Source of the DNA: Amoebophrya sp. A120
Taxonomy: Eukaryota; Protista; Dinoflagellata
Length of the DNA stretch: 64,000 nt
Assembly (NCBI GenBank): GCA_905178155.1
Contig: CAJINV010000008.1
Span: forward strand, 310,001-374,000
Direction of reading: 5' to 3'
Notes under the pieces: model-generated
Told to the model about the DNA's origin: nothing
Database searches by the model: none
What the model saw: the letters and a program-made list of their open reading frames with translations, nothing else
Translations under genes and position numbers: made by a program
Part shown: in pieces, positions 1 to 52,570 of the stretch
Layout of the letters: the number at the start of each line of letters is the position of its first letter
How positions within the stretch are numbered: the first letter of the stretch is position 1

Positions 1-1395
1 CTCGGTACAAGCATCCACCCAGATTCGAACGAGAACTGGCACAACAACAGGGATCCCAGTTCTTCGTACTCATGGATGGCGGCTACCGTCTGCGGCGGTC
101 CGAACACATTTGCGTTGAGCTCGTCAAACGTTAACCGCCAGTCGCGGCTGCGATCCAGTATGAACTGCAAAAGTATCGTATTCCTATTCGTATAAATGCA
201 TATACAAATTTCCTCAGCATGAGAAATAAAATTTGTAATGCGAATTTGCCTTAATTTAATGCATGATTGCAATACGAGTACGATGATTTTGCACGGGATA
301 TCCAGTTTCGCTTGCCGAAAAATCTCGAGCAAAACCAGCTCCTGATGTGCCGGGTCGTGCTGGTCGCCTGGGCCTGTAGTGGCCGCAGCAGCGGAGGCTG
401 ATGATGTGCCTGGCGGTGCCCCATGCTTTTCGCTGCTCGGAAAGGCCGACGCACTACCGTGCATACGAGGACCTCGATCCGGTCTAATTTGTTCCGCGCC
501 GCCGTCCACTTCGAGAAATAACTCGTCGGCTGCAGGGCGTTTCAAACTTGCTCCACGCGGCGGCAAAAATACCTTTCCGTCCAGCTTGTCCCGCTCCCGC
601 GCTTGCCGTCGTCGGGCGTGGTCGGCCTGAAAACGTAACAAGCCCTGGTACACGCCGTGTCTGGCCCAGATGTCCTGTAGTAAGTGATATGGTTCATTGG
701 ATAAAGTTAATTTTGCGCCCCTGACCGGGTATCATCGCTGCCGTCGGAGCTCCTACAGGGCCGGTCGGTGATGCGATCATAGGTGGATTGATTTTCCCAA
801 CGGGTTGCGGTATGAGCGAGCTCGGTGGTGCGTGCGCAGGTGGCTTGGGTGCGTGCTGCTGCCGTCGTGCGAAGGACCGAGGCAATTGACTTGCATTTAC
901 ACTCGAATCGACCGGTCGGTTTTCCGGGTTGGCTGCCTGCAAAAGTGTCGCCGGGGCTGAGTACTGATGTTGACCTGCTCCGCCAGCGACGCTACTGGAC
1001 GATGTTCTTGTGGCCGCCGTCCCACTACGGGAGGACGAACCGCCAACAAGTTCCGAGGCTTGGTCTCTGGTCATGTAGTTGCTTAAGGGAACGACCCCGC
1101 CCGCTGGAGTTGTTGTAGTCGTGCCCATCCCGGTCGCCCCGGCGCGTTGACGGACTTGCTGCGCCGCTGCACCTCGCGAAGTTCCACCGGAGGTTGATGA
1201 GAAACTGTGCAGCGGAACAAACCCTGCCTGCAAATTCCTGGGCTGGTAAAGGGTTGGCTTCCCAAACGGCGGTGGCGGAGCTCCTGCACCGCCCGACATC
1301 TCGTTGCTGTTCAAGACAGACCCAAACTCGAGGTCTTTCAAGCTGTCGTAGTCTCGTCGCCGGCATATGAACGTGTAGAAGAGCTGACAAGCCAC
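1..1395 (-). CDS. Hypothetical multi-exon protein; runs off the left window edge, 5' end uncertain
   Basis: ORF 694-1395 is followed by an exon from the acceptor tacag|GAC at 674 (DIWARHGVYQGLLRFQ...AHQELVLLEIFRQAKL). That frame stays open to base 1 (DRSRDWRLTFDELNANVFG...) only after removing element 159-300 plus one TSD. Confidence 0.6.
159..300. mobile_element. Introner-like TIR element, family B (142 bp), non-canonical intron
   Basis: Ends tatgaactgcaaaagtatcgta ... tacgatgattttgcacgggata. TSD tccag at 154-158 and 301-305. Similar to 5089-5238. Excision restores ...AKLD|RSRDW. Confidence 0.85.
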
Positions 1396-3014
1396 CCGGA
1401 TTATACCGTACAGATTGGCGCAACCTGTTGATTGTACATACGCGCTGCAGAGTAATTTTTTGCTATTTCAAGTGAATGGGCACATCTTTTTCATCTCAAT
1501 CCGGCAACGTAGGGAAGCTTCAAGTAGGGCCAGAGGCGCCTCGTCGGGTTTGGGATGTTACAGTTACTACAGCGACCTCGGTAATCAACACAGAACTTGA
1601 AGAAAGCTAAGGCGCCAGCGTTCTTGTACATGAAAAAAGGAAATACATTCTCGCGTTCGTTTCAATGCCGCGGGGGAGCGGCGATGACTTCGGTTCGTGT
1701 AGTAGCTCCCAGCAGGCATTGCGATGAGGTCGTCTCGTTAGCTCGCGATCTCTTAACCCCTTGTTGCTCACTTGATCTCAAGCAGCATGCCGTAGCAGAG
1801 AGGAAGTTTCGCTGCGTTGCGGGTTCTAAGTGACTCCGAACTTGAATTTACGTAGCGAAATCTACAATCGGAAGTGTTCAGAAAAGTCAAAAATTCATTT
1901 AAAATATTCGCGTCGTAAAACTAAATGATGAAAGAGCTTCAAACGAAAGAATCGCGTTGAGGGAGGTCATGCAATGGGTGCATCATGAATACTTATGCGC
2001 GGGAAGACATGTAAGTGCTTAGGTTGACTGCTTGTCAGTGCATGGAGAAGTAGCCGGTAGTCGTTGCACAAGAAATTCGAATTCCAACTTGACCACTTTT
2101 TCTTGTTGTTATATTTGTCTTATCTTTGGCAAAGAGCAGGTATCATGAAACCCGACTCTAATGACCGATGGCTGGCGTTGCCGTGTGATGCTGTGGACGC
2201 AAACAGACTGTGACTGACAGACGGCGCAAAATAATTCCGGGGTTCTGACTGACAAGTACTCGTATTCTTTTTTCGTTCGTTCGCTCATCTGCACTCAAAA
2301 GTGATCAAAAGTTGTTTGCGACCTCGCCCTTCTGGCGTTACTCGAAAAAAAAAACCTCAGCTCTCTCTCTTTTTCAGTGTCAAATACATGTAGCTTCGTC
2401 GCAGGCCTTGGTATATGCTTCTACTAATTTTCCAAAGAAAAACAAATTTTTATCTTAATCCTGCAGGATGACACAGAGATGTTAAGGACTGAAAAACTAA
2501 AAGTACTTACAACGCCATAAACGAAGGGCCATACCGGTGTTGCCCCTTTTTCGCATAGACAACTTATCATCTGTCGCATAAAATTCGTGTTCCTGGGCGT
2601 AGCGCTGCGAGAACAACTACAGCTTCAGCTTCTTGTTTTGCTGCTGCATAGAAGTAGGTACACAAACCATTCGAACAACAAACCAATCTATATCTATTTG
2701 GTGACAGAATTATACCTGGCTCGCTGACACGTGCGACGTTGGTGCGTTCGCAGGCACGTCTCCGGCTCTGCCCCGCAGGGCATCAAAGCCAAGAAAACCA
2801 TCATCATTCGGCGAGGCGTCGACAATCGGATCCCCCGCACTGCTTGCAGAAAAGCTTTCGATCGTATCGTGCTGCGTTCGTTTCTTGTGATTCATCATAT
2901 TTTATTCGTTTTTGAACATCACAATGTTGACCAAGTCGTGAGTAAACCGCTCGCAGTTTCTTCGACGTTCTCAGACCCGTTCTGTGAGTTCGTGAGTCGG
3001 CACTGCACGTCCGT

Positions 3015-3276
3015 TATCAAATGTAAAAATGTCTGGGTCTGGAAGATTACCAGGTTTGTCATGCACATTTTGCATGACTCCTGATGTCTGTGATGCATGC
3101 CCTAGCATCACAGATTTTGTGAGGGCTTCCTGATGCCTATACCGCATGACAAATGCTCTTTCCGTGTAGCAAAACTTGGACTCTCTTTGCTGCTCATGCG
3201 ATACAGATTTTTTTAGAATCGAAAATCAGCATGACAAGTTGCATTCTTCCAGACCCAGACATTTTTACATTTGATA
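3015..3276. mobile_element. Introner-like TIR element, family A (262 bp)
   Basis: Perfect 32-bp TIR tatcaaatgtaaaaatgtctgggtctggaaga. TSD tccgt at 3010-3014 and 3277-3281. Close copy of 34694-34961. Host ORF not established. Confidence 0.92.
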
Positions 3277-3959
3277 TCCGTCCTCTGGTTGCAACAGTGC
3301 CTCTTCTTCGTCACGGTGTACGGCCGTACCCTGACAAAAAACGAACCTCCAAAAAACCACACAACACGTCCAGAAACCGTGATGAAAATTCTTCTGCTGG
3401 TGCACCGGACTTCCAACCTTCGCCGCCAACATCAGACGAAAGACGCCTGCCACAATACATAGTGCCACGTCACGTTTTCGTTATTGGACATATCCAAATT
3501 GTATGTGTCGCGCTGCAGGAATCAAGCGAAAAAAAAAAAATATTCATATTGCTCGTTTTGATATTGTATATTTCAATGAGCCGTCAGCAGTACTCCTCCT
3601 TGTCCTTTGAACTAGTAGTATAGAGTATCTATGAAACTGCAGAGGAAACAAGATTAGAAGACCACGACTTTACACCAACTATGATGATACTGCAATTGCG
3701 CACCAGAGCCAGAACAATATCATATTCATTACATCACGCAAATGATCATCAAGCGTCTCCGAGAGCATCCGTTCGAGGATGTGGAAACAAGCCGCGCGTT
3801 GGCAAGAGGATAATTCGTGCACATTGGCAAACCCTTTGTAGTTTTTTCTCTTCGGTAAGGGCTTACTATATTCAAATTTATGAAATGCGTTCTGCACCAG
3901 AGGATGAAAGAGAACCACTGTCAGTCTGGGCTCCAGAAGTTGGAGAAAGAGAAACAAAG

Positions 3960-6653
3960 TCACCGGCTTCGTACTTGTTCGCGATACGCTTGCAAGCAAC
4001 CAAGCAAAACGCTCGCACAACACAGGGCAAATGCCACTTGTGCGGGTCTCTGAAAGCACTGCTCCACCGGATGACAGAATTCCGCCGAGGGGTCTTGCTC
4101 CGCGTGCGCTTCGTCATACGCGTGTCCGGTTAGTCGAGCCATAAACTTCACCGCAACGGACATGAAGAAAACCGGGAAGGCAAAGCCAAAGACCATGTTC
4201 TCCTTCCCGAAGTTGCTCACCATAAATGCTGGAAGCGTCGCCCAGTTGGCACCGTAGCAAAGGCCCACGAGCAAAAGCCAAAAAGAAGACGGGGCCGAGG
4301 ACGACGCTGTCGCTGTCGGCGAGGCCGTCATCAGCCCGAAGACGCAAGCCGCCGCCATACCGGCCCCGGCCAACAGCATGAGTCTCGCAATTCTGCCCGG
4401 ATCTTTTAAGTCATTTCCGCCCACCGGTGCTGCGGAGTTCGTTGGGCCCCTGCGCTCTGCAGCAGGCGGACCACTACCTCCAGAAACAAGAACTACCGGC
4501 CGCAGGATGAAGTAATCGATGCAGAAGCCCGCGAACAAACGGCCGCCGGCGTTGCAGAAGCTCACGTGGGTGACCACCGCATCGCGAACGCTAGGAGCGT
4601 AACCGTACGCTCCCGTGATCAGCTTCAGATTCGCCATAAACAGGCCACTCCCAACGCACTGCGTCAGAATGAACTGGATCACGACGAAGTGAAACTTGGG
4701 CTCGCGATACAAGATGTCGCGCCATGTGAGAACCCCAGAAGGTGTGGCGGAGCTTGCAATCGATGCACTGGCACCAATTATCCCGGCAGATGGTACAATT
4801 CCAGTGCGATCGGCGATTCTTACCTGTGGTGCATCATGTTCATGATCATGAAGATCTTCAGCAGGAGGACCCCAATTGTAATCTTCATCATCGACCACTT
4901 CGTCCTCATGAAGAATGTAATCATTCGGATTTCTGGTTGCGCCCAGCATTTTCACGTGATTCCGTGCACCAAAAATGGTGGCAGTTGCTGGCTGCAGGAC
5001 GTTACTCGTCTTTTTACGTGCAGCACTAGATGACGAATGATCATATTTGTGTGCAAAAACCTGTGCGGAATTCGCGTTGCGATGCTCGTATGAACTGCAA
5101 AAGTATCGCACTAGTATAAATTGCATTACAAATTAGCCCAGCATTACAAATTTAATTTGTAATGCTGATTTACCTTGAGAACGAGATTTGTAATGCATAA
5201 ATGCAATTACTACGAGTGCGATACTTTTGCACAGGATAGCTCGCTCAGCTGCAGCTGCTCCCGTTCCTCCTCCAGCTGCGTTCGCGCGCGAGCAGCTGCT
5301 ATCCAAATAGAAAACGTTGTTAGTGTAAATTTGTAGTGCGCAACACGCAAGATGATTGCGTCTGTCATGCTTGCCATGCGTCATAGGGTCCATTAAAGGG
5401 TGTTTTCCCATACTATCTGCGCATGACAGGTTTTTGCTGTAATGCCAGACAAATTTGTAATGCTATTCCTCCAAAAAAGTTACACCTACAATGTTTTTTT
5501 CTTGGATAGCTGCTGGAAAGGTCGCAGTAGAAGAAGAAGCAGTAGTGATTACAGCTGCCCTAGTGTGGTCGTCCTCCTCCTCTTCGGTGTTTGTAGTTAC
5601 TACTGTGCTTATTGGAACGACTTGCAGAAAGACCGCACCCATGATAGCCGTGAAAGCCCAGATTACTCCCGTCCAGTAAATGAACGAGTGCACGCTGTTG
5701 TGCAAGATGTGTGTGTAGACGGAGTTCCATACCGCCGCGGAGAGACCGTAGCCAGCGGCGAGCACGCCAGTAGTGCGGCCGACACGCTTAGTTAGGAGGA
5801 CGCCCGTGTAAAGTCCGTTCTGGTAAAGTGTCACGGACCCGTGCTGTATCAAAAAGTAGAAAAACGCCATTAGGGTACTGGAGACAGATGGCTGTCGTAA
5901 AGGTTCTTTTCTCGCCTGCTGGAGCAAGAAGTTGTTTCTTGCGAAAGTTTGCGTGTCGCTGCCAAGCGCATCGTCCGCAACGAGTCCTCGCGTAAGCGTC
6001 GTCCCCGCGGCAGGGACTGGCGGCAAATGCATGTAAAAGAAAATGCTGCCAAATCCAACACAACAGAAACTGTAAACGCTCGAATAAAAGACGCCGAACT
6101 GGTGAAAGATTGCCCCAGAGAGGAACCCAACCTTCATCCGCGGGAAAATTTTCCTTCCTCGTTGAGGCTGCCATAGTACGCAGGTCGCAGAAAGAAACGC
6201 AATCTACTTGCGGCGTCGCGGTACTGGCAAGACGAAAAGCTGCAAAAAGTCACGTAGAAAACTACGAGTAGACAAGTCGACCGATCGATCCTGCATGCCT
6301 CGTGGCCAGCCACCTGATAAGTACGAGCATCGGCGTCAAGGTAGAAAATTTTCACAATGAATATGCCCCACGCCAATTTGTCCGGCAGAATACAATACGT
6401 CGACGTCTGCCGCTTTCCAGTGCAGCAGTGTCATCAGGTCCGTCTCGAGGCCTGCAAACATGTAAAGCGTGCCGCCACAAATAGCATTCCACAGACACAA
6501 ACCAAAGACCGACAGAGCCGCGATTTTATTCTTCTCGTCATGATATCCAAGCGCCGGCGCTGATGTTGCCGAAGACGAAGATGCTCCACCACTGTTGGCG
6601 GAGGTCGCGAGGACGCCTGTGCTGGCATGCAGCCAACGACTATCATACAGCAT
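3960..6653 (-). CDS. Major facilitator superfamily transporter (nodulin-like/Mch1-type), 4 exons
   Basis: Hydrophobic helices with motifs GGTLYMF, GQIG|VGFLSG, AAGYGLSAAVW, CNAGGRLFAGF, GLCYGANWATLP and GHAYD. Joined via a GT-AG intron (6132-6371) and two TIR introns (5300-5508, 5089-5238), giving continuous ...TFPAAARARTQLEEEREQLQLSEHRNANS... Confidence 0.8.
5089..5238. mobile_element. Introner-like TIR element, family B (150 bp), non-canonical intron of the MFS gene
   Basis: tatgaactgcaaaagtatcgcact ... agtgcgatacttttgcacaggata. TSD gctcg at 5084-5088 and 5239-5243. Excision with one TSD restores frame. Confidence 0.9.
5300..5508. mobile_element. Introner-like TIR element, family C (209 bp), non-canonical intron of the MFS gene
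   Basis: tatccaaatagaaaacgttgt ... acaatgttttttttcttggata. TSD gctgc at 5295-5299 and 5509-5513. Excision gives FPAA|ARART in frame. Confidence 0.88.
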
Positions 6654-11100: not shown

Positions 11101-14100
11101 ATTGTGTTGTCGTCGAAGAAAGTCAAGTGGTCCCTGGCGTTGCCCGAGTTTTGTCTTCGGTACATCAAGTTGCTAGTACCGCTACTCTTGTTGTACCCGC
11201 CCTTGCCTCCGTCGTGGTGATGTGCCGGTGTGGCGGGGCCCCAACTGGTGGTGGACAGCGCACGGCTCTTGGTAGTCTGTTCTTTATCTTTCGCACTTGC
11301 TTGCTGCTGGTAACTAGTACCTCCTCCTGGTGGTCCGCCTTTGCTCGAAGCCGATGCGGTCGGCCCCCCGGCAGAAGATGATGTTGCCTTCTTGTGCGTG
11401 TTCGTGGGTGGTGCTGGTCCCATCTCACGACTGTAGTCGATCTGGATGAACCCTTTTGCTCCCGTCGACCTTGACGTTCCGTCCGGATTCAGATCGCCCC
11501 CCGTGAGGTGATCTCCGCTGCCCGACTTTGAGCTGCCAGGAAGGTCCTCCATCTCGGAAAGGGAAGAGTCCGGGCCGGCGTTTTGTACCACCAGAACATC
11601 CTCACGACGACCGGAGGGAGTCGTGTGCTTGTTTCCCGCCACATGCTGAGTGTTATCGTGGTTCGTGTTTGACGTCATCATCTTTTCCGGTATGGACCTG
11701 GGTGTATTGCTCGACGTTTGTTCACCCCCGGAGGCACTGTTACTTGTCTCCGACACAAACCCGGCCGCGCCCGGCGTTCGTGGCCCTCCCTGCTTTCTGC
11801 TGCTGGTCGGTTGCCCTTTGGCCAAGCCGCCCGCGGTTGCCCGCTCCGAACTTGGGCGGGCCGAGGTGGCGGACGAGGTAGACTGCTCTGGCAAGGTGCT
11901 GATCGGAGCAGGAAGTGGCAACTGATGTGTCTCATCCTCACCGGAACTTGGGTTGTAGGTGGCGCGATCCTTTGGACCCTGCACCGGCGAGGGGATCAAT
12001 CCACCCGGTGACTGTGGAGGTGGTGACTTTGCGCTTGTTTCTTCCTTGATATCATCTGCCACCTTGTCTTTCTGGTGTTCTCCACCTCCTGCTTCACCAG
12101 AAGTCGATAATTGCAGCTGCCGCTCCTTGTCATCGACATTCTGGTTGGAGGTAGAAGTTGTGCCCTCCACTTTGCTCCTGTTCGCGTTCCGGGCAGCGGC
12201 CCGGTCACGAATGCTCTGCGCATTGACCCGCTTCGAGAATTGCTCGTGCCAGACCTTCAGCTCTGTCCCTATTTCATCGCGACCCTGCTTCAGCTTCTCC
12301 TGTGTGTCTTTGTGCTTGTTGCTTGTTCGCGTTTTGCTCCCGTCGTACGCGGCCGAAACCCGGTCCATTTTCCCCGCCATATTGAACTTAGTGCTTGCTC
12401 CGGGAGGAGGCAGTGTTGCCTTGTTTCCGGGCGAAGGATGTGCTTGTTGTCCACCGAATTTGCTACTTCTCAAGCCCAGCTGTGCAGCTGCAGCCCCTGG
12501 AAAGTCGTCGTACCGCTGCTGTTCAAGATCATACGCCGTTTTGTTCTTCCAGTACTGGTCCATTAAGTTCTTGCCGAACACATCTTTTCCGTGGCGCGTT
12601 TGGGGCCCCAACTCGAGCGCCATGGCATTGATGTTATTCAGGGGCTGCCTGTTGCCCGTCCGGGCGTAGGCACTTTCGCTGCCCGAACCTGAACCGGAAG
12701 CAGGCTGTTGACTATCAACGTCGCGATCCGACGCCCTCTGCGGTATCTCGGGAAGGGGCGCAGAGAGCTTGGCTCTTCGATTTGTCGTGTTTGTCGCCTC
12801 CTGCTGATGTTGTTGACCAGTACGCGGGGGCTTGTTCGAAGATCCTTGTCCAGCGTTGTCTCCGTCTTTTTTCTGGACCGCAGAGGCACTACTAGTTGCG
12901 CTCTTGCTATTCGCTGCAGTGCTGGTGAAGCTCGGAGACAGTGGCTTGTTCACTAGCTTTCGGCTTTTGGTTTGTTTCTGCTGAGAACTAGTACCCTGCA
13001 GGTTACTAGTCGACGAAGCCGCAGACGACCCTGCTATGGGCGTCGGCGGTATAACTGGGATGCGTGCCTGCTGCTGCTGTTGCGATGTTGAAGGTTGCTG
13101 CTGATTGAACAGATCATACTGCGGCCGGGTCGTGGTCTGCTTTTGTTCCGCCGGCTGGCCCTGCTGCTGATAAGTTCCTAGCAGCGTTTTGTTCTTCGAG
13201 CTGGGGTCCACCAGACCCGCGAGAGTCTTGTTATTGTGGACCGCCGCCGCCTGCTGCATCCCTGCACCTGAAGCGCTCAGAAGCGACATCTCATCCTCCG
13301 CGTCCACCGCAGCCGCCGGGCGATGGGTACGACGGGTGCTAACGCCTCCGTACTGGTCCGCGGTTCTCTCCATATCAGCATCCATCAAGAAAAGATCCGC
13401 GACCAATGAAATGTGGTCTGAAGGCCAGTCGGCATTTGGCATGGACCGCGTGGGGTGCGTATTCCACTGCTCGCACGACAAACGCTCTTCGTCGAAAATT
13501 TGCAAAACTTGAGCCACCGCAAAGGGTCTCGTAAACAAAATCTTGTCCAACTCACCGCAAGAGTGGTACCTGTTGTAAGTACATGTTTTTTTTCGCTCAT
13601 TCTACTTTAGCTTTACGACCAAACACATTCACGATCGTGAGGCTTTTAAAGATCAAATAACTTTAAAAATTTCATTTTGCTTTTTTCTGGCGAAACATCA
13701 CAAAACAAATCTTTACGTGTCGTTATGGGCCGTGGTGACCGATTTTTCTCCGTTTTCCATGACTGATTCGTCGTTCAGGACGAAAGCGTCGTAAGCGGAG
13801 TCGAACTTTTCAAAGACGCACCGCGTTTCGTCCCTGATACCGTTCAAGTCCCCGACTATCAGCACTATCGCACGAAAAAAGTGTTACAGTTACACATTTG
13901 TTGTCAATTCAGCAACACAAATTTCCCTGCAGGAGAGAGAAAACCTGCAATGCAGAAATCCTACGGGAAAACACCTGTGAAAGGAGGCTCCTATGCATAT
14001 CCGGCATGACAGAGCTTGTCTGTCTTGCTTGGCCTGCAACGCAATGTGTAACTGTAACACTTTTTTCTCAGGATAAGCACCGGACGAGAATTACTGTCGT

Positions 14101-23199: not shown

Positions 23200-24058
23200 G
23201 CACAGGGAGGGCAGGGCTGTTGTTGGTTTTTCGAAAGACGTCGATGTGCATCAAAGCTGTCTCCGTGTAGGTGCGCAAAGTACCACGCACGATCGTTGCA
23301 TAGAAAAGCCACTCGATCTCGAAGTTCCAATACTTAATACTGTCTATGTTTTTTCTGTAATAAGTGAACGAAAGTCAGGTCTTCTTGTTTCTGTTTGCGC
23401 ACGAGTATATTTATAATCAAAATCATGCTCCAGTGTGAAAAAGGACGAACCGACGGGCACCATTTGTTGTCCATGGTGTCACAAAGTTTGAGCACACGAT
23501 CGGGAACGAGAGAGCACGGCATGCAAACAGACCGACTACTGCACAGCAATATTTGTTCGTTTGCTTTGGTTGCAAAGGCTGAGCCTAAGTTGTCTTCGTC
23601 ATGATACAGAAAGCTGCTCCAGGCGTGTGCCTGTCACGATCAACCGAGCGAGCGCGAAGTGTAACATCAATAAAAGAAACCGAGCGACTTTATTGTGTTT
23701 CCTAACAGATGCTAGTAAGTAGATCAATGCCGTCGTACTTCTTCTTCTCCTTCCTTGCAAGAACAGACCAAACACCGTTCCGATCAACGATATCAAACGC
23801 ATTATTGCTATCGTGTGCTTCGACTTTCATCAGCACGCTCAAACCGAGCTCCTGTCACTGGCAAGAAAAGAAGCGAAAATTTCAAGGCCACGAATAGCAG
23901 AAATCTTGATGTCTGATTTTTATTCGCTATATGCATTTCAATTTCTTGTTGTTGAAGCATCAGGATCATCAGCTTCTCGTTCTCATCCGTCATTAATACT
24001 CGCCCTTCGTCGCTGGCGTATCTCTATCTTCTGCAAATGCAGCACCGATCGATTCATG
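23200..24058 (-). CDS. Probable exons of a small multi-exon hypothetical gene; boundaries approximate
   Basis: Protein-like open stretches (LGLSVLMKVEAHDSNNAFDIVDRNGVWSVLARKEKKKYDG; AWSSFLYHDEDNLG...; WNFEIEWLFYATIVRG) separated by AT-rich intron-like gaps. Not fully assembled. Confidence 0.35.
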
Positions 24059-30465: not shown

Positions 30466-33400
30466 TCACACGCCGCTGAGCAATCTGTAGCCTGTCCAAT
30501 CGGCAGGAGCGACGTAGTTATGTTGCTTCATGAAGTTCAGCAAACACTGCGAGGGACCGTCCACGGGTGCTTATCCTGATTAAAAACGTCCCCACACCAG
30601 AGTCAAGATGGGAAATCTGCTACACAAATTTACTAGCCTTCGTTAATTGGCATGACAAGTTTGTCCTCGTACGTGCAATCCTGTTTTAGCTAGTTCAGAA
30701 GCGTCACAGATCTAGCATAGCATGCTGATTCTAGCATCACAAATTCCAAAACACGACTAGAAAATCAAAATGCTTCTCATAGAGCTCCGCATGAGAAACT
30801 TCCTTGGCATGCAGAATTGCATGACAACTATGGGGTGGGGATGTTTTTACACGGAATAGTGCTTCGACCTTTTTCACCTGTGCTGCCGCTGCGCCGCGTT
30901 TGCTAGGACTCGCACCGGTACCCTCCGCGAGTCGCTTGCTCTTCTGTTTTGTGGTCGTTCAGTCGTGTAGCTGAACTGAATACGCATGGTAGCAGAGGCA
31001 AGAAAAACCAACATCAAGGTCGGTAGATCGTCATGCACGCATCGCCGGAAGAACCAAGTCCACTTGAAAAGGTTCAAATGTACTAAATGCGCAAAGATCA
31101 AGATGTAGTATACATAGTAATAGTTTTATTTACCGCAAACCACGCGAGGTCTTCTTCCTGTGACGGCTCTGGGACGTATTTTTGAAAGTCCTCCAACTTC
31201 TTCCTGGCAACCGTCCACTTATGGAAGCGTCAGGTTTGAAATCGTCAAAGTTGAAATAATTTGTAATGCATAAAATGCGACACAGAAAGTGACTCTATTG
31301 CAGAGGACCCACGGGAGGCAGATTATAGTCCTGGTAAGGGTCACAAGTTGGACTGCTAACTAGCATGACAGAAGGCAGCTCTTTGGCCCTAAACCGCATG
31401 ACAGACTCGCTTCCAGGACCGGGAAAATTTGTCACGCACCGACTACAAACTGTAGGTCTAATTGGTATGCGTTTTATGCATGACAAACTATTTCAACTTT
31501 GACGATTTCAAACCTGACACATCCGTACCACTCACCGCTTTCGTAGTTGACGAAGGCCATTCCGAAGCGATGATGGAATTCCGCTGTGAATTGCTCCGTC
31601 ATGAGCCGAATGTCCTGGTCCTCACAAAATTCGTCGAAGGGGACGTAGTTCTCGCTAAGCCGCTCTTCCTTCGTTTCCTCCCTCTGCAGCCGCATCTGAA
31701 ACTCCTCCTTGCGCGACAATTTTTGCCCCGTGAAGGTCGATATCTTTTGCTGGCCACCACGTGCGGCCGCGCCGCCTCCTACCGCGGCGCCCGATGCTGT
31801 GTTCCGAGCCCGCTTTTTGGGGCTCGGCGACGCAGACCCCGCCCCGTGTCTGCTTGGGCTGGTGGCCGCCGCCTGTAGCAATGTATTGCCACCAGGTACT
31901 GTGCCCGTTTCCGTCCGCCGCTGCCGCATGTTTTTCCGGTTCTTCGTATTGGGCGACTCGAAAAAGTTCGTGGGAGGTTGAAGATTTGTATGCTAGGACA
32001 GTTTTCCTCGGAGAACTTGCGACCATCAAGTAGAAGGTACCTTCTTCTACCAGAACTCTAACAACGCAACACAACTGTAAGTAGAGGTACTAGTAGCACC
32101 TCCAGCAATACTAAGCTCGTATCTGGACCAGACTTACTGTGAAGGAAGCGAGCCAGGCAAGACTAAGAAAAGTAAACCGTTAAAGAAGACATCATGATCA
32201 TGCACAACGAGGACAGGAGAGTTTTGCAGCATAGATCTTCAGGCAATTGCTGTCTAAGTCGAGGGTGTAGAGGTAGAAGGGCTTCTTGATCCCACTCACT
32301 AGCACGCGGTCCACGCGGCGAAGCTTTCGCCGGTACGGAGGAGTCACACAGTGGGCTAGGTGTTCGCTGATCAACAATGGCACACCGTACTGTTTTGTCG
32401 CGGCTTCCAGCTGGGCACTGAGATTTACCTGGAAGAATAAAATCGCGGAAAAGGATTTATACAGAAGTAGTTGCCGAAAAATCATGCGTGGGACGAGAGT
32501 CATTCATCCAAGGACCTTCCATATCAACAAGTCGTAAGGGTGCAAGTAGCAGCAGCTGCAGAAGGTGGAGGAAGAAATAATAGTTCCATCATGAAGTTGT
32601 ACGTGTGGCGAGAGGTAGCTGGCGTCCACTTTGAACTCGCTTCCGATAGCGCCTTCAATGGCCCATCCGCGGTGTAGTCCAAAACCCATTTTCACGCGGT
32701 AGTTCGGCATTCGATTGAGCAGCCCCTCGTGCAGGCGGTACGTCGCTAACACTGGGGACCGGTTGGTGGCGGCGATGATCCGTGAGAAGCACATCACCGC
32801 TAGTTCGCTGATCCGGCACGCCTCTCCGCGGTGAAGCTCCTCGTAGGAAATGTCGGACGACTTCGTGATGTACCCTAATCGCCACACTAGCAGAAACGCG
32901 TCACCGATGTTCTTGTTCGGAGATCCGCAGTGCGCATCCGTGACGGTGTGCACGATCTCGGAAATCTGATCGCATTTTTACATTGGAGCCTACGTACTAG
33001 ATCATTCAAGAGTATATTAACAGCACGCGAAACATCAAAAATCCTACTTATCCTTTTACTATTTGAGCAGGAGAAAGTAAAAACATCCCTTCCATACAAG
33101 AAACAAAGGCCGAGCCAGTTTTTGTACCCGATTGACGAAGAGCATGACACCGTCCTGAAGAATCTCCGTGGCGTCCGTGAAGTTTCTAATATCGCAAAAG
33201 CCAAAAATAGCGTCCATGTACTGACCATCAACCATGGTGTTTATTGCACTGGTTGTGTCCGAGTCCTTCATGTTGTGTCCGATCACTGCTGAGCCTGCTT
33301 CTCCAAAAGCGAGCGCGCAGAGACCCCCGAGTTTGATAATGGTTTTCTCCAGGATCACCGTCTCCATCAGCTTGGAGGACCCCGGATCGTCGTTCCAAAA

Positions 33401-36400
33401 GGCCACCAGAGCGTGCTTGATTTTCAGGATCCAGCGGATGAGAAAGAAGTTCGACAAAGAAGAGCCGCCCTCCTGCCTGTTTGATCGGCGGCCGCTTGCT
33501 TTATTTGCGCCGGTTGTACTAACGCTGGCATTATTGGTCGTACTGGAGACCATCGGCCCTTCCACGCCGGCGCTTTTGTCAACACCCGCATCCAGGACCT
33601 GGCCCGAACTGCTCCGATCGAACCTGGAGGACTGCGAAGTGTGGTGACGCACGTCGGACGGGTTTTTCCGGATTGTCGCCAGCCGCTGGATGTTTGTTTG
33701 CTGCACAAAGCTTGGCGACTTGTGGTCCAAGAGAGGCTCGTCGCCCCCTGCTATCTGCGCCCGCTTCTCTTTTGACGAGATCGGCCCACTGGTATTTCCA
33801 GTTGCGCCGGCCGTCGAGCTACTCGCGCTCCCGGTTCCCGTGATCATTCCTGTTTTTCCCTTGTTATTCATCTCCGCGTCGCGCCGGAGCTCTTCTTCTG
33901 ACATCGTATTCCCTCAAAATTATCCATCCCCGTGGTGCGCGTGCCCGTCTACTTTCTGCATGAAAAAAGAAGTCAATTTTGTATTTGTTTCGTTTACGTT
34001 TGTTGCATGCGAAACTTCTGCATGGGAATCGTTAATTTCCAGGGAATACATCCGGATCGCCTCGAAGGGGTTGGACCGGATCTTGCTCAGCCGCGTGATC
34101 ATGCGTTCTACGGGGTATAGCACCAGCTTGTTGGCGTCCTTCGCAAATAGCATGCTGCCAACCAGGAGGAGGAGAAGCACGAAAAAAGTCTGGAACATGT
34201 TGAAAACCGCCTCTAAGCTCGTCCAAGGAGTCAAATCGAAGTACCACACAAAGACCATGCTCTCCAACCTACAGGATTTTTGGATTACCGAATAGATCCA
34301 GATACTGTCTTGCATGGATAAACTAAAACTTTTTCATTTTCATTTTCTTGGGCCGACAAAAATGGCCATCTTTGCTTTTTCTACGTGTTAGAGAGGTAGA
34401 ACTTCCGCAGTTCAGGAGCGCAGGCAAAACAAAGGTGATAGATGAAGGAGAAGGAATGCTACAAGAAAAAAAACCTCTATTAATACTCTGGGTATTGCTG
34501 CCGCAGAAAGACGTCATCGGTATCACGACCGCACGCTTCGGACTCACAGATCATGGGCGCTACCAGTCCGATCTCGTTGTACCGCAGATCTTTCGGACAG
34601 CGCTTGTCCTGCGGGTGAGCAATGGAGGCACCATACCGGCGACGGATATAGGACTGGAAGAACAAGTCCACTTTTTCCTCGCAGTTCCCGTTCTATCAAA
34701 TGTAAAAATGTCTGGGTCTGGAAGATTGCCGGCTTTGTCATGCACATTTTGCATGACTCCTCAAGGTCAAGTCTGTAATGCATGCCCTAGCATCACAGAT
34801 TTTTAGAGGGCTTCCTGATGCCTATTCCGCATGACAAATGCTCTTTCCGTACTGCAAAATTTGGACTCTCTTTGCTGCTCATGCAATACAGATTTTTTTA
34901 GAATCCAAAATCAGCATGACAAGTTGGATTCTTCCCGACCCAGACATTTTTACATTTGATACGTTCCACACCTGCTTCAGATTTTCCTTGAACTCATCTG
35001 GGATAGCATTGGACTCGTACACTCCGTCCACGGAGGCACTCGGTTGGCGGGACGCCCGGTACTTTGCGTCCCAGGTGCCGCTGGGAAGCGCCCAGTGGGC
35101 CGAGTCGTTGTAGTAGCTGCTGTTCCCTAGCGTCGCGTGCTCGGCGATCTCCTGCCACTCTGCGTTTGCGGACGGCTGAAAGAAGAAACCCACCCAGAAA
35201 ACGCGATCCTTCACGCTATGGGGGTTTACCGAATACCCGCTGCCACTATCGTACGTGCCGTGCCAATTATGATAATACAGGAAATGCAGGTGCTTACCTA
35301 ACAGAAGATTGGTGGATTCAGGTTTCAGGATTATATCATGTCTTTCTTACGTAGCGACGATGAGTCAGTGCTGCGGCTTCATCTCGAGCTCAGTCTATTT
35401 CGTTCCACCGTGTGCACTAGGCAGCCTCGAGACGTGTCTAGTATTTGCGCGGCGTACAAACAAGCGTAAGTAAAACTTCGAAATTCAGCACTCACTCATA
35501 AGCTGCATACTTACGTTCGTAGGCGTTTCGTTCTGCGTCTCGTCGACGGATTTCTGCCTCCGTGGCGCTGGCGCCAGCGATGTGCACCTTTTTGACCTCT
35601 ATTAAGTATCGGCGAAACGAGTCCCAAATGCTATTCACCGAGTACGAAGCGGCGTCCATGTAGAGGTCTTTCGTAGAGAGTAACCCGTCGGACCGGAAAA
35701 GCGGCACCGCAATCAACATAACAAGAACCACCAAGATGACTCGTCGCGTGGTCATTTCTGACAGCTTTTTTCCCACGCGAGACTCCTCCACTTCATGTTC
35801 CTCGTCGTCGACGGCCGCGTCAGAGAACACCTGGCGCTCACCTGCGGAATTAATCATTGCAAAGTTCTTCCGATCTTCCACCAATCCCGCAAAGCTATGC
35901 TGGGGAGCTGGCATCTGCAAAACCAAAAGCTAGAAGTTGCATGCTCATTTGAAACAGAATGCCAATACTAGTAGCAGTAATTCCATAAGGAGCTCTACGC
36001 ACCACAACTACACTGTTTCTCTGCGTGCATCGTTGTGACGTCAGAAGTTTCGGGTAGAAGTTCTTGTGTCAACGAAACTTATCTTACCGGGCGGCAAGAG
36101 CATGTTCTGCTGCTCTCTTTCGCGCTTGCGCTTCCTCTCCAGGTGCGCTTTATAGAGTTTGAAGATCCTAACCAACCGAATGACTCGGATAACGCGGACT
36201 ACGCGGCCCATACGGGTTCCCATCCGGCTCGCACGCCCGACCCGCGCCACGCCGCCCCCTCCTTGCCCACCACCGCCCTCGTCCTCGGGGCTGGTGAAAA
36301 GCTCCTCCGCAAGCGTGGTGATGTCCAGCACGAGGGATAACGTCGACACGATGTCGAGATAGAAGAAGAACCCGCCGTAGTAGTCCGCCTTGCCCCAGGT

Positions 36401-40151: not shown

Positions 40152-43100
40152 CTAGTCTGCATCGTTTGTTCCACCTGGGCCAAGATGGTTTGGCGCGCCA
40201 GATTCGGGACTAACTTCCTCATCGGCCTCATCCCCGGGACTCCCAGGCGCCTGGGTGCTCACGTTATCCTCGAACTGCTGCTGTTGCTCCTCGTACTGAC
40301 CTTCTTCAGCATCATCGACGGCCAGTCGCTGGTATTCTGCTTGGCACCACCTTAGGACATGGACAAGTTGAACGCATTACAAAGCAACTTTCACCTAGAC
40401 AGAACAAACAAAAATGTACAGGTTCGCTCAGGGGAAAATCTCGAGGGAAAGCGAAACTACTGATCAGAAGCTGAGTCAAAGGCGGCAGAAATTATCAAAA
40501 ACGTCCGCACCTGTCCCACTCTGACAGGCCGTCCCCGGTCGTCTGGTGCATCTGAAAGGGATCTCGGTGTTCCCAATGAATGAATTTTTGCAGACTGATG
40601 AAGATGCTGAAGAATGTCGAAGCCGCTTTTCGCTGGCGCAGAAAGTCGCCCAGACTGTAGACGTAATCTGCGCTCGCGGGATTCGCCCGAAAGCCAAACA
40701 GCGGCGACTGGAAGGGAGCGGCGATGTGGTGCAGCTGTTCTTGACGTCCTAGTCCTACCTCTCGTCTTTCCTCTTCTTCCTTCATCAAGTGGCGCTTCAC
40801 CTGGGGCTGCAACATATCATGAACTTGACAGGCAATGTCCGCAAACGCGATTGGCTCGTACTGGAGGTAAGAGAACCGCTGCGCCATCTCCTCGAAGAAG
40901 TGAAACAGCTCCCATGGCCGGAGAAACCCATCGCTGTCCAAGTCCATCACGCGAAACCAGTAGCTAATGCTACGCTCGTTCAGCCTGTCCTGGTCACAAA
41001 GGAGAAAGAAAATAAAGTCCTCGTAGCACATACGGCCCTCGTGCCCGGAGGTGAATCTGTGGTGAAGTATTTTTTTTTTTTGCGATCAACACCGGTAAAA
41101 AAGTGTCTTCATCTTCTTTCGCATCAACGCAAAGCACGACGACGGGGGCAGCCGCACAGCGAGCCAGAGGCACATCAGCGCAGTATTGCTGCAGCAGTAG
41201 CTGTTATTGTTAATGAATCATTCATAGGGTAAAAATAAAAAGTAAAAGTGATGGTGCTATGTATAAATATTGATTCCACGACGGACTTTCCACATAAAAA
41301 TAGCAGCAGGGCGAAGACAGACAGAAACAGTTCGAAACAACACTATTCAGATTGAGTTAGAGTACTTTCTCGGGATTTCGGAGAAAATCCGATCGACGGC
41401 CCGTCGCGACAGAGCGTGCGTATCGTACTTGAGCAGGTCGTCTTTGTCAAGCAGGCAATCGTGATCATTGTCGAGCTCCCAGAAGGTGCAGTAGATCACG
41501 TAGAAATGCTCGTAGGAGAAGAACTTGCGAATCATCTTCATGTCTTCAATTTGATCGAGCTCGAGCCAGGTGTCTACGATCGATGGGCGCCGGCGCCGCA
41601 GGTCATTCAAGCTGATGAGCCCATCGTCTTTCACATTGTGGATAAAGTAGATCCGCGCAATCACCGTGTCTGCGTACTTCTCTTGGAACTCAGGGGTGTT
41701 CTGAAGTGTTTTTTGAAGAGAAGAGTTGAAAAGCATTCTGCTTGTGCGCACATCGTAGTGCTCGCCCCATTCACATTCGTCTATACACGATCATGCGCAT
41801 GCGTAATGATATCTTCGACGTCGCATAAACTATATGGAATCTCTTGGTTGAGTTCCAAAAACAGAGGGCACCATCCAAAAATACCTTCAAGAATTCCAAT
41901 CCCGGGTGTTCTTGCAGCACGGTGTCGAGCAAAGCCCGGAAGTCGTCTTTGGTGAGTTTTGGGTCCTCTCGTTCGTTCAAAGCGACGCCACCGCGGGCGA
42001 TGTAGAAAAACGACAAATGGTTGTCGTCTGGGTCGCAGTACAGACTGCAGTAATGCTCGAACGCCTCCAGAGGGACGGCGATTTCGGCTTCCGCGGGCAC
42101 GTGCTGCTGAGATCCGTAGAAGTTTCGCAGCAGCTGGTCCCACACCCGCTTGGCTAAGTACTTGCTGAGATGTAGGAACTTGTTGAGGAAGGGATGCAGG
42201 TCTGCGGGTCTGCGAAACACATGCTGTTGCTTGTTCGGTGTCGCGAAGTGATCTTCGGCAATGCGTTGCAGCTGGAACAGCTGCTCCTCGTTCAGCGCCG
42301 TGGGCCGCATTTTGCGCGGCTCGAAGAACCGCGGGAGCTCGACTTTCTGTTCTGCGCTGAGTCCCGCCAGTCCGCCGCTCTGCTGGGTTAGCTGGTAGGC
42401 AAGGGTCTTTTCCAGCGGAATTGGCGGGTGCTTGCTTTTATGAACTGTAAAAATGTCTGGGTCTGGAAGAATCCAACTTGTCATGCTGATTTAGGATTCT
42501 AAAAAAATCTGCATTGCATGAGCAGCAAAGGGAACGCAATTTTTGCTACGCGGAAAGGGCATTTGTCATGCGGAATAGGCATCGCGAAACCCTCAAAAAA
42601 TCTGTGATGCTAGGGCATGCATCACAGACATCATGGCCAATGCAAAACATGCATGACAAGTCTCAGAATCTTCCAGACCCAGACATTTTTACATTTGATA
42701 GCTTTGCTCCTGTGCGGAAAAGTGAAAGTCATGTTCGGGATCGTACGCTCCTTCAGCGAACTGCTGTTGCCCACCAAAGCCCTCGTCGTCAGCTCCCGGT
42801 CCAGCCGCACCCCCTCCCGGCTCGAAGTTGTCTACTCCTGCGCCATGCTGGTGTTGCTGCGTTCGTTGTTCCTCTGGCTGAGAAGACGGCGGACCCGCAG
42901 CGTGTTGAGGCGATGTAGCCACCGCTTCTAACTCATGTTCTGATGATGTGCCGTGTTGAAGATGAAGACCAGCTGCCCCTGGGTCCTGTTGCGTAGAAGC
43001 ATACGAGTGGTCTTGTAGCGAACCCCCCTTGTTCGCAGCTGCGTGTTGATCTAGGACTTGCGCCCCTGCGGAAGAAGTTGTACCGGTCAGAATTGGGTGC

Positions 43101-48777: not shown

Positions 48778-49922
48778 CTAGATCTCATCGTCGTGGAGTA
48801 GCATATTCGGGATTCCTTTCTCCACAGGGAATTCGCGACCAGATTCTGGACAAACCAAGCTCCCGTCGATTAAAAGGACATCGAGCATATGGATTGCAAA
48901 AATGTCTGGGTCTGGAAAATTCTGAGACTTGTCATGCACGTTTTGCATGAGCCATGAGGTCTGGAATGCGAGACCTACTTAGCATGACAGATTCTGTGAG
49001 ATCCGTATCATGCCTATCCTGCATGAGAAACTTCCTCTCAACTTGGTAAAAAGTGGACAGCTTTTGGCATTCATGCAACACAGATTTTTGCACGATCCGG
49101 AATTAGCATCACAAGTTGCAACTTTCCAGACCCAGACATTTTTACATTTGATAGAGCAGGATCGTGTGCAATTTTTCCAGCAATGCTTCATCGTCCTCCC
49201 AGTTGTCTGGAAGCTCTGCTTATGAAATGTAAAAATGTCTGGGTCTGGAAACTTGTAATGCTATGTTGGGAATAGTGAGTGCTCTGTAATGCACAGCCAA
49301 GCATGAGAAATATCTGCGCTATTTTGTGTTGCTTTGTTCGCATGAGAAACTGCGTTTTTGCATGACAGGCAAGACAGAGGGTCTCTTCTTGGACACGCAT
49401 CACAAAGTTTTTTGTCATGCCAGGCAAGCATGACAAATCTCGCAATCTTCCAGACCCAGACATTTTTGCAATCCATACTGCTGGAAGCACGGGAAGCTCT
49501 GGCACAGGCTCGCTCTCGTTGTTGTCCGACATGTTCTCTGGACCACCATCTTCTCGTACAATGCTGCAATGCCGGATGTCCCTGTCAAGTTTTGTTCAGA
49601 AATAATTTTTTGTTACATCATTTCCATCTCACAAAAGCGATACATAGGAGGTCCTTTTCTTCAATCGAGAATCACGCCTGAACGAATGAAAGTGAAACTT
49701 GATGTGATATTAAATGCAAACCGAAAAGACAAAACCGGTAAAAATATACTCTATCGCTTTCAGCAGTGCCGGGTATTCGACTTTTCGGACCATGGCAGCG
49801 ATAAAAACTGCGTTGAACTCCGTTTCCTCGTATACAATCTTACTGGCTTTTATTCTGAGAGGGAACCCGTTCTGGACGCCTTTTTTGTTGCACTGCAGCA
49901 TGTTATGAGTCAGGAGCCTCAT
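48778..49922 (-). CDS. TRM112: Multifunctional methyltransferase activator subunit TRM112, 4 exons
   Basis: MRLLTHNMLQCNKKGVQNGFPLRI...VEYPALLKAI, then a GT-AG intron (49564-49749). After excising two TIR elements it reads ...LPAELPDNWEDDEALLEKLHTILLDVLLIDGSLVCPESGREFPVEKGIPNMLLHDDEI*. Confidence 0.95.
48888..49153. mobile_element. Introner-like TIR element, family A (266 bp), intron of TRM112
   Basis: TSD gagca at 48883-48887 and 49154-49158. Excision gives HTILL|DVLLIDG. Confidence 0.95.
49221..49477. mobile_element. Introner-like TIR element with family A ends (257 bp), reverse orientation, intron of TRM112
   Basis: TSD ctgct at 49216-49220 and 49478-49482. Excision gives LPVLPA|ELPDNW. 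Confidence 0.95.
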
Positions 49923-50610
49923 TTTGACCAATCAATGTTCTTGTAAATGAATAGCTTTGAGTTTGAGTTTGAGGTTCGATAATGTCGCAGAAAAAAATAA
50001 GCCGATTCAAAGCTTAGTTCGTTAGACTACGCGTTCTTTTACTTTTGTAAAGCACCAAACTTGTTCCACATTGATTTCGCTGTCACGGGTTGGGATCTGT
50101 CACGTCAGAATGAAAATGATGCTTTAGCATTTAACGAATAATCCCCACGATCGGAACGCCTAGCGTAGAAACTCTCGTCGATCGCAAGGGGAAGAAGAAG
50201 ATCTTCAACATCACAATAAGATATATTCTAGGCGGTGCAGCCCGTCATTTCAGACTTTGTGTTGGATCTTACCTGTTTCACTTTGGATCGATTCGTGTGT
50301 CTTTTCACAGATTGAAACCGATAAAAGTCTTGACCTACAGGTATTTTGACTTGATCTGTCTGTTTGTTTTGTGTTGTTCTTCTCATGGAACCGTCAGCTG
50401 CAGCAGTATCTTCTGCGACAGCAGAACGTGATCTTATTTGTCTGGTCTCGCTTTGTAGTGATGAACAATTCCACGTAGGTCAGCACCTCGGTAAGCAAGC
50501 GAGAATGAGGATCTTTCTATCGTTCGACTTGGACTAAAATTGAAATTCGAAAAAGCGTACATGAGGCGTTTGTCGTCATGGATGCCGCTCCGGGCGCGAT
50601 TTAGTACACC

Positions 50611-52570
50611 TTATGTCTGGTCCTCAGATAATTCGGCGCCCGCGCATACCGTTTTGCCCCTCATGAAGCGCAAAATGCGTGGGAGTGCGTCTTTCGCGTT
50701 CATCCGCAGCGGTGTGTGACCCTCTGGTACACTCCAGTGATCCACATTTACGCGGATCAGGTTGGCTCGCCCGCTAGCGCCGCCGCAAATCTCCATTGCT
50801 CGAAGGGTCTGCGCGCGGGCCCGGCTGGTGTATTGCTTTTCCTGGTCGTCGTCGTACTTCGCTGCCTCAAGTTCCAAAATTGCCACAGTCCCACGCCGCT
50901 GGTGGGTAAGGTGTTGCGCTAGTATCAAATGTAAAAATGTCTAGGTCTGGAAGATTAAAACTTGTCATGCTAAATCCGAATATATGTAAAAACCTGTGTT
51001 GCATGAGTGCCAAAAGCTGCCCAATTTCGACCAGGTTGGGAGGTAGTCTCTCATGCGGGATAGGCATGGCAGAGACCTCACAGACTCTGTCATGCTCGGC
51101 GGCGCATTCCAGACCTCGTGGGTCATGGAAAATCTGCAAGACAAATCTCGCAATCTTCCAGACCCAGACATTTTTACATGTCATAGCTAGGTGAAGAAAG
51201 CGATAGTAGTTTTCCTCCGCCTCCTCGTATTCTTCAGACCGAAAGAATTTCGTTTGTTTTTTACATCCATCTTTCGTGGACGAGCGGGTTCTGACGTCAA
51301 CATTCGGACCTACGTTGGTTCCTGACGTCTGGCACCCAGGACAAACCGGCAACACGCACCGCCAATCCGGGTCGTAAACCACCTTCGGCGCGTCATCTCC
51401 AACCGCAGCCGCACGACTTCTAGTTTCCTGCATGGCACTGGGTTTCGGGTATTTCAGAGGAGACAGGTCGGCGAAGTTTTTGCTTTCGTTCCATGTTGGG
51501 AGATTATCGGTAAATCTGTTCTTGGAGGGACTTGCGTCAAACGAGTTCTTTGTACTCGCCGTTGTTTTCTTAGCAAGATGAACGTCTTTGTAATGTTGTG
51601 TGTTTCTCTTTCCCTCTTCTAGTTCCGCGGCCAGCAACGCGCAGCCGGTGCTGACTGCCTGCATGGCCTTGGTTGCTCTTGTAGTTTTCGACAAAATTCC
51701 GCGTTCCCAGTCAATATGTGCTTCTAGAGCTCGCCACGTCGGCTCTGCTGGCCACACGTGGCCACAGTTCGAGCATTGTAAACGTGCCACGTCACCGCGC
51801 GCAGCGTGAATAATCTGCTCGGCTGGCTGGTGCACGAACCCGCCGGCAGGAGAGGCAACAGGAGGCGTCTCATTCGGATTCGTCAGCAAGTCGGTACAAT
51901 TTTCCACCACGCCTTGTCGAAAGTACCACTGCTCGCAAGGGTCATTGTGCCAGATGAAGAAGCGCTTTTTCTGCAGTATCTGTCCCAGAACGCGATGCAA
52001 GTACGTTCGCCCGCATGCACTTGTAGATATTGCAGCTCCTGGCGCGCCGCGACCTTGTTGTGTGTTTGCTTTCGCAGCGTGCGAGCCGATCTCGCTGGCA
52101 AGGTTCCGCAGAACTTTCGATGCAGCCGGAACGTCCGGATAAAACACTTCACCCGAGGCGGATCCCGTTCTTCGTGTCTCCTCCATAGTACTACAGTCGA
52201 CTCCGCCGTAGTAGAAGCCGGAGTGCAATTGCTGCAGACTAGGTAAATTGGCCACTGCCGACGCCGCTGCCGCTACACTGCCGGTCGGGGAGACATTGTC
52301 TGAGCGCCGCTGATACCGCTGGTCCTCGCCATCTTGCCGCATCCAAACGGTGTGCCGAGCGAGAAACGGAAACAAATACAGTGGGCTGTGTCGCAGCTCT
52401 TCAGATGAAAATGCCTCCGCCACGCTGCTGATGCCTGCCCAGTCGCGCGCCAGTCCCGGGTACCGGTCCTCAAAACCATCATCGTCGCTCGCCAGTGACT
52501 TTCCGACGATGACGAGGACGCAGCTGGCAGTGGCAATCAAATCAGCTGCACGATCGAGTAGGGCGTCCAT
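50611..52570 (-). CDS. Divergent Sir2/sirtuin-like protein (2 exons)
   Basis: LDRAADLIATASCVLVIVG; RGDVARLQCSNC; LPVCPGC..VGPNV; after excising element 50923-51185, TVAILELE and LIRVN. This is the motif order of the Sir2 fold. Confidence 0.65.
50923..51185. mobile_element. Introner-like TIR element, family A (263 bp), reverse orientation, intron of the sirtuin-like gene
   Basis: TSD gctag at 50918-50922 and 51186-51190. Excision gives YRFLHLA|QHLTHQRRG. Confidence 0.93.

Follow-up and report, generated by a model that had tools for sequence, protein, structure and literature searches.

The stretch of DNA considered here, a 64,000-nt portion of contig CAJINV010000008.1 (hereafter the window), comes from Amoebophrya sp. 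A120 and contains a set of short elements with terminal inverted repeats (TIRs) that interrupt its genes and that are, with little room for doubt, removed from RNA rather than from DNA. The best reading of these elements is as non-autonomous cut-and-paste TIR transposons serving as introns (introner elements), and by an account that we narrowly prefer they leave the RNA through a likely altered U2-type spliceosome, guided by a hairpin, with cuts placed 1 nt before and 4 nt after the element (-1/+4).

The open reading frames (ORFs) of the window that contain an adenylyl-cyclase exon (protein P0001) and a Nodulin-like/MFS exon (P0121) are 100% identical to proteins named in their source as Amoebophrya sp. 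A120, and the A25 orthologues are the next-closest matches of both. An earlier note, made from the sequence alone, had listed 13 elements in this DNA and linked them with Amoebophrya; the source strain is A120 itself, and because its published introner elements share with those of the window both the host and the end signature (TAT-N7-AAA), the window elements are the published ones and the phenomenon is real, well supported and already known. In the accessible parts of the literature, to which the published statements in this text are limited, Farhat et al. (2021, PMC7789003) give 65% of A120 introns as non-canonical and describe the inverted repeats of introner elements as TAT, 7 variable bases and at least 3 A, with direct repeats of 3-5 nt (5 bp in the legend of their Fig. 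S19). Gozashti et al. (2025, PMC12130899) recognise 58 A120 introner families, one of which, family 38, combines TIRs with integrase-like homology; among 19 of the 58 A120 rows of their Dataset S2, 15 are classed as 'TIR DNA' and the superfamily is unknown in all 19. A review (PMC11282704) treats the A120 case as spliceosome adaptation, without data.

The elements of the window, with one canonical intron that is referred to below, are as follows (coordinates, strand, description):

159..300, minus strand, introner element of 142 bp with repeat TCCAG, sharing its family with 5089, within an unnamed ORF; removal read from the frame
3015..3276, no strand assigned, family A element of 262 bp with a perfect 32-bp TIR and repeat TCCGT, outside any convincing ORF, probably in an untranslated region or intergenic
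5089..5238, minus strand, element of 150 bp with repeat GCTCG in the Nodulin-like/MFS gene; missing (+5 nt) from an RNA contig by length arithmetic
5300..5508, minus strand, element of 209 bp with repeat GCTGC in the Nodulin-like/MFS gene; missing (+5 nt) from the RNA contig that also lacks 5089
6135..6363, minus strand, decayed element with ends TAT...ATG and a repeat matching at 1/5, unlisted by the earlier note; intron 6131-6364 in the RNA contig, running from 1 nt ahead of TAT to 4 nt past ATG, cut site unambiguous
13866..14075, minus strand, element of 210 bp with repeat AGCAC in an EEP-type gene (PF03372 match on an upstream ORF), just before VLIVGDLNG
30572..30858, minus strand, element of 287 bp with repeat GTGCT, in the ion-channel/adenylyl-cyclase gene and close to its end; P0001 drops 292 nt
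31220..31527, minus strand, element of 308 bp with TAYGG ends, a 59-bp TIR and repeat CCACT, inside the conserved NYESGEW/TVA; 313 nt dropped, no gap against orthologues
31989..32233, minus strand, decayed TAT...ATA element, repeat lost, unlisted by the earlier note; the protein permits cuts 1 or 0 nt before TAT only
33907..34048, minus strand, older element of 142 bp with a 4/5 repeat (CATCG/CATCC); for the conserved Arg in NPFEAIRMSEEE the first base of the upstream copy must stay exonic
34694..34961, minus strand, family A element of 268 bp with repeat CGTTC in the adenylyl-cyclase gene, in the orientation opposite to 42439
42439..42700, minus strand, family A element of 262 bp with repeat GCTTT in an EF-hand (PP2A B''-like) gene
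48888..49153, minus strand, family A element of 266 bp with repeat GAGCA in a TRM112-like gene at LHTI/LLDV (PF03966 match with E 3.6e-4, below the cut-off)
49221..49477, minus strand, family A-related element of 257 bp with repeat CTGCT in the TRM112-like gene, 67 nt from 48888
50923..51185, minus strand, family A element of 263 bp with repeat GCTAG in an unnamed ORF; the codon model failed to recover the frame here
4824..5060, minus strand, canonical in-frame GT-AG intron of 237 nt, spliced out of the RNA contig that lacks 5089 and 5300 but retained in annotated P0121

Using a blind scan for segments with TA..TA ends, identical 5-mers on the two flanks and terminal bases that are inverted-identical at 13 or more of 20 positions, we recovered 12 matches in the window, each at a start given in the earlier note, and 0-2 in each of ten shuffled windows. 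The lengths of the 13 elements (142-308 bp) were correctly given; the thirteenth, 33907, is real but older, with a weaker TIR, and the 5-bp direct repeat that had been claimed at every element is thus exact in 12 of the 13 and matches at only 4/5 here. The TAT-N7-AAA signature stands at one or both ends of 12 elements, the other being 31220, whose TAYGG ends lack an A run. As had been claimed, removal of the element plus 5 nt restores the frame at 12 of the 13 (3015 is the exception), a long minus-strand frame opening at each, and none of the 13 offers the GT or GC donor with AG acceptor of a canonical U2 intron in any of the six cut registers. The equal split of family A, three copies in each orientation, proved firm for five copies only, with 3015, 34694 and 48888 one way and 42439 and 50923 the other (49221 belongs to a related subfamily); orientation independence itself holds in this 3:2 split as in the larger sample described below. 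The longest ORFs and every Pfam-matched ORF tested in the window lie on the minus strand, and the recognised genes form one co-oriented block, as published for A120. We also observed that the outer 10 bases of elements 159, 5089, 42439, 48888 and 49221 (for instance TATGAACTGY or TATGGATTGC) recur across otherwise unrelated families and are unlike at the two ends of a single copy, a pattern that resembles an exchange of terminal modules.

Reads of four of the eleven runs listed were compared over window positions 1-20000; two of them, the raw RNA runs X9 and X10, gave 4 matching reads each and are probably from another strain. Run X1 behaves as DNA (flat depth of about 27; it may be the source of the assembly itself, and its contigs drop rare forms), and run X3, whose RNA label is a guess, lacks the canonical intron 8483-8653 and is hence spliced RNA. 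The summed depth of X1 rises to 5,000-184,000 over element bins against about 27 in the flanks, so that the element families must be highly repeated in the genome. Its unique contigs (255-3038, 3253-5118, 5482-13894 and 14048-20000; about 26-28x) extend 24-30 nt into the elements without a break at the junctions, and all five elements of this interval are retained at flank depth in this one run, in which rare variants are invisible; no skip of an element plus 5 nt occurs among the joints shown (15 of 131). By contrast, elements 5089, 5300 and 6135 are absent from spliced RNA. Contig 10 of X3 aligns to the window in three pieces, 6924-6365, 6130-5508 and 4821-3810, the second and third of which are separated by 80 nt; those are the 55+23+2 nt left after removal of 5300+5, 5089+5 and the GT-AG intron 4824-5060, which also accounts for the 2-nt offset at 4821. 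The loss of element plus 5 nt that the earlier note had expected in RNA is therefore seen at the two listed elements that this contig covers, and 6131-6364 is missing from it as well. Annotated A120 proteins likewise drop the element plus 5 nt at all six listed elements that they span (292, 313, 147, 273, 214 and 155 nt), the A25 orthologue aligns without gaps across the three conserved sites examined, and for the remaining listed elements removal is read from the frame alone. The retention of intron 4824-5060 in public P0121, when it is spliced from the RNA contig, is either an annotation miss or alternative splicing.

Perfect repeats hide the position of the cut; where the repeats have decayed, the register becomes readable. 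The decisive case is 6135-6363, the repeat of which matches at one base in five and which leaves the RNA contig as 6131-6364: of the six registers, only the retention of 4 bases of the upstream copy and 1 base of the downstream copy gives GVGLGF as in A25. Protein comparison makes 31989-32233 compatible with registers 4 or 5, and at 33907 the Arg found in A25 is encoded only when the exon keeps the first base, or more, of the upstream copy. As these three decayed elements agree, it is probable that the cut is fixed, with the intron beginning 1 nt ahead of TAT and ending 4 nt past ATA. Under this -1 register the intron starts N-U-A, that is with U+2/A+3, and the canonical donors of the window are GTA in 7 of 8 cases. 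The A25 elements begin with TTA, TT being the main A25 5' pair (PMC7789003), which again gives U+2/A+3; the published NT-start splice pairs and the per-family GT/AT counts agree with the -1 register (PMC7789003, PMC12130899).

A larger sample was obtained from a metagenomic relative. The family A end matched at least 151 stretches in one metagenomic assembly and none in viral contigs, and 149 loci (481 kb) were analysed; the sample is biased to family A, the search pattern having fixed TIR positions 1-3 and 11-12. Near full-length relatives of 12 of the 13 window elements are present in these loci (best identity 83-97%), and blastn of the window sequence outside the elements against the same loci gave no match, no locus being orthologous to the window. 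Among 292 end pairs picked without repeat information, 213 are flanked by an exact 5-bp repeat, 36 by a 4/5 repeat and none by a 6-bp repeat. Frames called independently on the two sides of an element agree with removal of the element plus 5 nt in 53 of 61 cases under the loosest filter (249 analysed) and in 21 of 21 under a stricter one, where chance would give one third. Four elements interrupt the Rpb1 gene of the relative without leaving a gap, and one of the four, 972 nt long and set in a conserved Rpb1 motif, carries a poly-A-tailed insert; taking out this element restores TIAAQSVGEPATQMTLNTFH, and a protein search with this Rpb1 returned no A120 or A25 protein, the best match being 74%. 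Each of the eight large families includes copies that run with the host strand and copies that run against it (11:12, 17:9, 11:7, 12:8, 5:10, 7:7, 7:6 and 2:4; each p at least 0.17). In the 118 elements whose strand is confidently called, some register permits GT-AG in 7 and GY-AG in 11, against 6 GT-AG placements in antisense. Imperfect repeats in the loci of the relative did not discriminate between registers.

Some further observations on these loci concern the insertion sites and the structure of single copies. A target-site bias to G/AG as splice helpers, suggested by the 13 window elements, was not upheld in 118 elements; a mild phase bias is present, codon position 3 being overrepresented for the first base of the duplicated target (54/33/31, p=0.016, loci L001-L149). 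Introner copies with secondary inserts, 457-972 nt in length, were found at L072:5014-5985, L048:3862-4492, L047:571-1051 and L025:4304-4760; three of the inserts are flanked by 8-16-bp duplications and one of these is poly-A-tailed, which suggests retro-insertion of the kind without long terminal repeats at the octamer described below. An element with a 4/5 repeat (L072:6530-6769) lies within an apparent canonical GT-AG intron of Rpb1, so that existing introns may be targeted too, and a 1031-nt pair taken as one long element was resolved into two separate elements.

The ends are laid out as TAT, a variable spacer, (TG-Y)-AAAA and then a family-specific stem. Within the elements we found an octamer, GCAT[GCT]A[CG]A (GCATGACA-like), which occurs 49 times in the 3,026 nt of window elements and 8 times in the 60,974 nt outside them. 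The relative has 983 occurrences, with at least one in 263 of 270 elements, against about 20 in shuffles; they peak 30-50 nt inside the ends and point in the same direction from each end. Such a subterminal layout is typical of the subterminal repeats bound by transposases. The octamer is missing from the two oldest window elements and from 33907, and because these are still removed it would serve mobility and not splicing; a reading of the octamer as RBFOX-like was ruled out, as its fifth base varies. The TIRs, the fixed 5-bp duplication (exact at 213 of the 292 end pairs above) and the lack of coding capacity are those of MITEs (miniature transposable elements with inverted repeats), the origin that the earlier note had suggested. 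No long ORF is present in the 457-972-nt copies, no autonomous copy with a transposase was found in the 481 kb of loci, and no transposase family was recognised among the 100 long ORFs scanned of 463.

For the insertion step we propose a DDE transposase with a 5-bp staggered cut, of which one protein could serve all families by way of the shared octamer and the TAT...AAAA ends. In the pre-mRNA the TIRs would pair from about position 8 inward, on either strand, the outer 8-11 nt remaining loose; the fixed cut would then leave in the exons 4 nt from the upstream copy of the target and 1 nt from the downstream one, so that the gene is exactly restored. The N-U-A start would supply the U+2/A+3 of host GUA donors, the 3' cut could lie at a set distance from the invariant AUA (a candidate for the branch adenosine) and so require no AG, and the hairpin would replace U1/U2AF in joining the ends. 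The altered U2 spliceosome is favoured because A120 has nearly all of the machinery (83 of 89 spliceosomal proteins with U2, U4, U5 and U6; PMC7789003), because U1 is undetected in A25 and A120 (PMC7789003) and was found in a GT-AG-only strain from Karlodinium (PMC12005148), because of the U+2/A+3 register, and because a tunicate provides a precedent for a spliceosome able to drop GT-AG (PMC13326754; PMC11282704). We hold the spliceosome as the catalyst to be an even call.

Several results weigh against this account. Direct RNA support covers only 2 of the 13 listed elements, in one contig and by length arithmetic, the joint table being filled by DNA repeat noise. The register is read from three elements, one of them decisive, and the published NT-start pattern and per-family counts are not independent support, as aligners choose among ambiguous registers and may have a preference. 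In the relative there is no strand-specific splice signal, G standing at +1 in 41 of the 118 confident-strand elements in sense and in 36 in antisense (p=0.65), and a comparison of 5' with 3' ends showed no TIR position to differ (152 elements). An AG is lacking, and the adenosine proposed as branch point stands just 5-7 nt away from the cut, a distance shorter than usual. The transposase search described above leaves the insertion step without an enzyme.

Precise removal of the element plus 5 nt, independent of GT-AG, is what the earlier note had called structure-guided removal by a spliceosome, a nuclease and ligase, or DNA excision; that much stands, and it is DNA excision that the data disfavour. 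The foremost rival, credible and not far behind the altered spliceosome, is a spliceosome-independent RNA endonuclease and ligase that would measure from the terminal stem and make a fixed staggered cut, with 1 nt on the 5' side and 4 nt on the 3' side; removal of this kind has been put forward for the nonconventional introns of Euglena. The rival is favoured by predicted folds in which all 15 non-canonical elements have their two ends paired with each other on both strands, over 15-36 of the first 40 nt, when two canonical introns have 0 and 2 predicted end pairs on the sense strand; by the decayed elements, which retain predicted end pairing with an overall fold no better than shuffles; by the lack of sense/antisense asymmetry; and by Euglena, where the stagger is similar (N3 vs N5-6) and introns leave as circles (PMC12501133, PMC11282704). 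Against it, the elements of A120 and of A25, unlike in their termini, both have U+2/A+3, as do the host GUA donors, and the Euglena signature (N3CDG...CH'GN5-6/R) is absent. In addition, TIR positions 4-7 match within an element at 0.39-0.77, no better than random end pairs (240 elements), so that the stem reaches the cut sites in no constant way, and the process lacks a known candidate enzyme. A bolder form of it strikes us as doubtful: A120 and its wild relatives would possess, besides the spliceosome, another splicing machine independent of it, in which a ruler-type RNA nuclease/ligase recognises only TAT...ATA plus the stem, cuts at -1/+4 and erases transposons of up to about 1 kb in either direction, all families sharing an integrase-like transposase that binds the GCATGACA octamer.

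Programmed DNA excision, in which the element and one repeat copy would be cut from the DNA of the transcribing stage as are the internal eliminated sequences (IESs) of ciliates, is very improbable. The TA ends and flanking repeats do resemble IES pointers, and the test covers a single DNA run, which does not extend to other life stages and whose contigs drop rare variants, and 15 of 131 joints; however, that run retains the elements in its unique contigs over positions 1-20000, whereas in a ciliate they would be missing from transcribed DNA, and 6135-6363 is removed at the fixed register, as a 4+1 chimera, despite its 1/5 repeat match. The parasite moreover has one nucleus and no separate germline, so that excision from DNA would mean heritable loss. 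The least probable explanation, reverse-transcriptase template switching across a hairpin with direct repeats (a known substrate, PMC2923612, and all RNA evidence here is cDNA), with the frame kept by, for example, ribosomal bypassing (any 5-nt repeat contains one codon in frame) or with the hosts as pseudogenes, is opposed by an element-free contig at full exon depth (15.1), by hosts that include Rpb1 and conserved cyclase motifs with intact frames and chiefly, like DNA excision, by the equally clean removal of an element without a usable repeat.

Returning to the introner-element reading, at the level of the phenomenon we see no difference from the published A120 elements (PMC7789003, PMC12130899), which share the organism, the TAT-N7-AAA ends, the 3-5-nt repeats, a length of about 240 nt and the many families, and for which removal is supported by RNA-seq, a hairpin model is given, and mechanism and transposase are likewise left unresolved in the accessible text; the window elements have the same host, inverted-repeat ends (12 of 13), direct repeats, genomic repetition and absence from RNA. 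Euglenid nonconventional introns (PMC12501133, PMC11282704) are alike in their MITE-like origin with TIRs and target-site duplications, in paired ends (predicted here), in lacking GT-AG, in coexisting with canonical introns and in a longer unpaired 3' tail; they differ in their signature, which here is N-TAT...ATA-N4, in the circles that have been shown for them (PMC12501133), and in that the A120 elements have many young, near-identical copies. The non-canonical introns of Fritillaria borealis (PMC13326754, PMC11282704) likewise derive from elements with TIRs and target-site duplications, and the spliceosome that removes them is an adapted U2 one; their ends show a preference (AG-AC, AG-AT) and a duplicated U2AF is used, whereas the first and last bases of the A120 elements are free. 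As to the mobilising enzyme, IS3EU/GingerRoot (PMC10045372, PMC12730594) has TA..TA or TAYGG termini, as in 31220, and an integrase-like DDE enzyme, which agrees with the integrase-like homology of A120 family 38, but makes 6-bp duplications, a length found at 0 of the 292 end pairs of the relative; hAT5 (same sources) makes a 5-bp duplication as the A120 elements do.

Three other features of the window may be mentioned. A further decayed element is possible at 22900-23362 (minus strand; its TAT...ATG ends have A runs and it lacks a repeat), where the DNA has no long ORFs; a 101-nt direct repeat, 88% identical, occupies 56381-56481 and 57313-57413, 932 nt apart in apparently non-coding DNA; and a 27-nt unit occurs three times at 60828-60987 (spacing 48 and 85), upstream of a 951-aa ORF.

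In the accessible literature on Amoebophrya we found nothing on insertion orientation, cut register or the octamer. The uniform 5-bp duplication, the orientation independence, the probable fixed cut, the shared octamer, the wild relative and the DNA-versus-RNA test were not found in the published text so far as it is accessible, and Farhat et al. Figures 3 and S19-S25 and the rest of Gozashti et al. Dataset S2 may hold part of them. At issue is how about two thirds of the introns of this parasite leave without GT-AG and what moves the elements; the fixed register, the U+2/A+3 rule, the orientation independence and the octamer make the question of mechanism specifically testable. If confirmed, the system would show how a host can use splicing to disarm an entire class of cut-and-paste transposons, and an RNA excision tool that is sequence-agnostic and scar-free could take inspiration from it.

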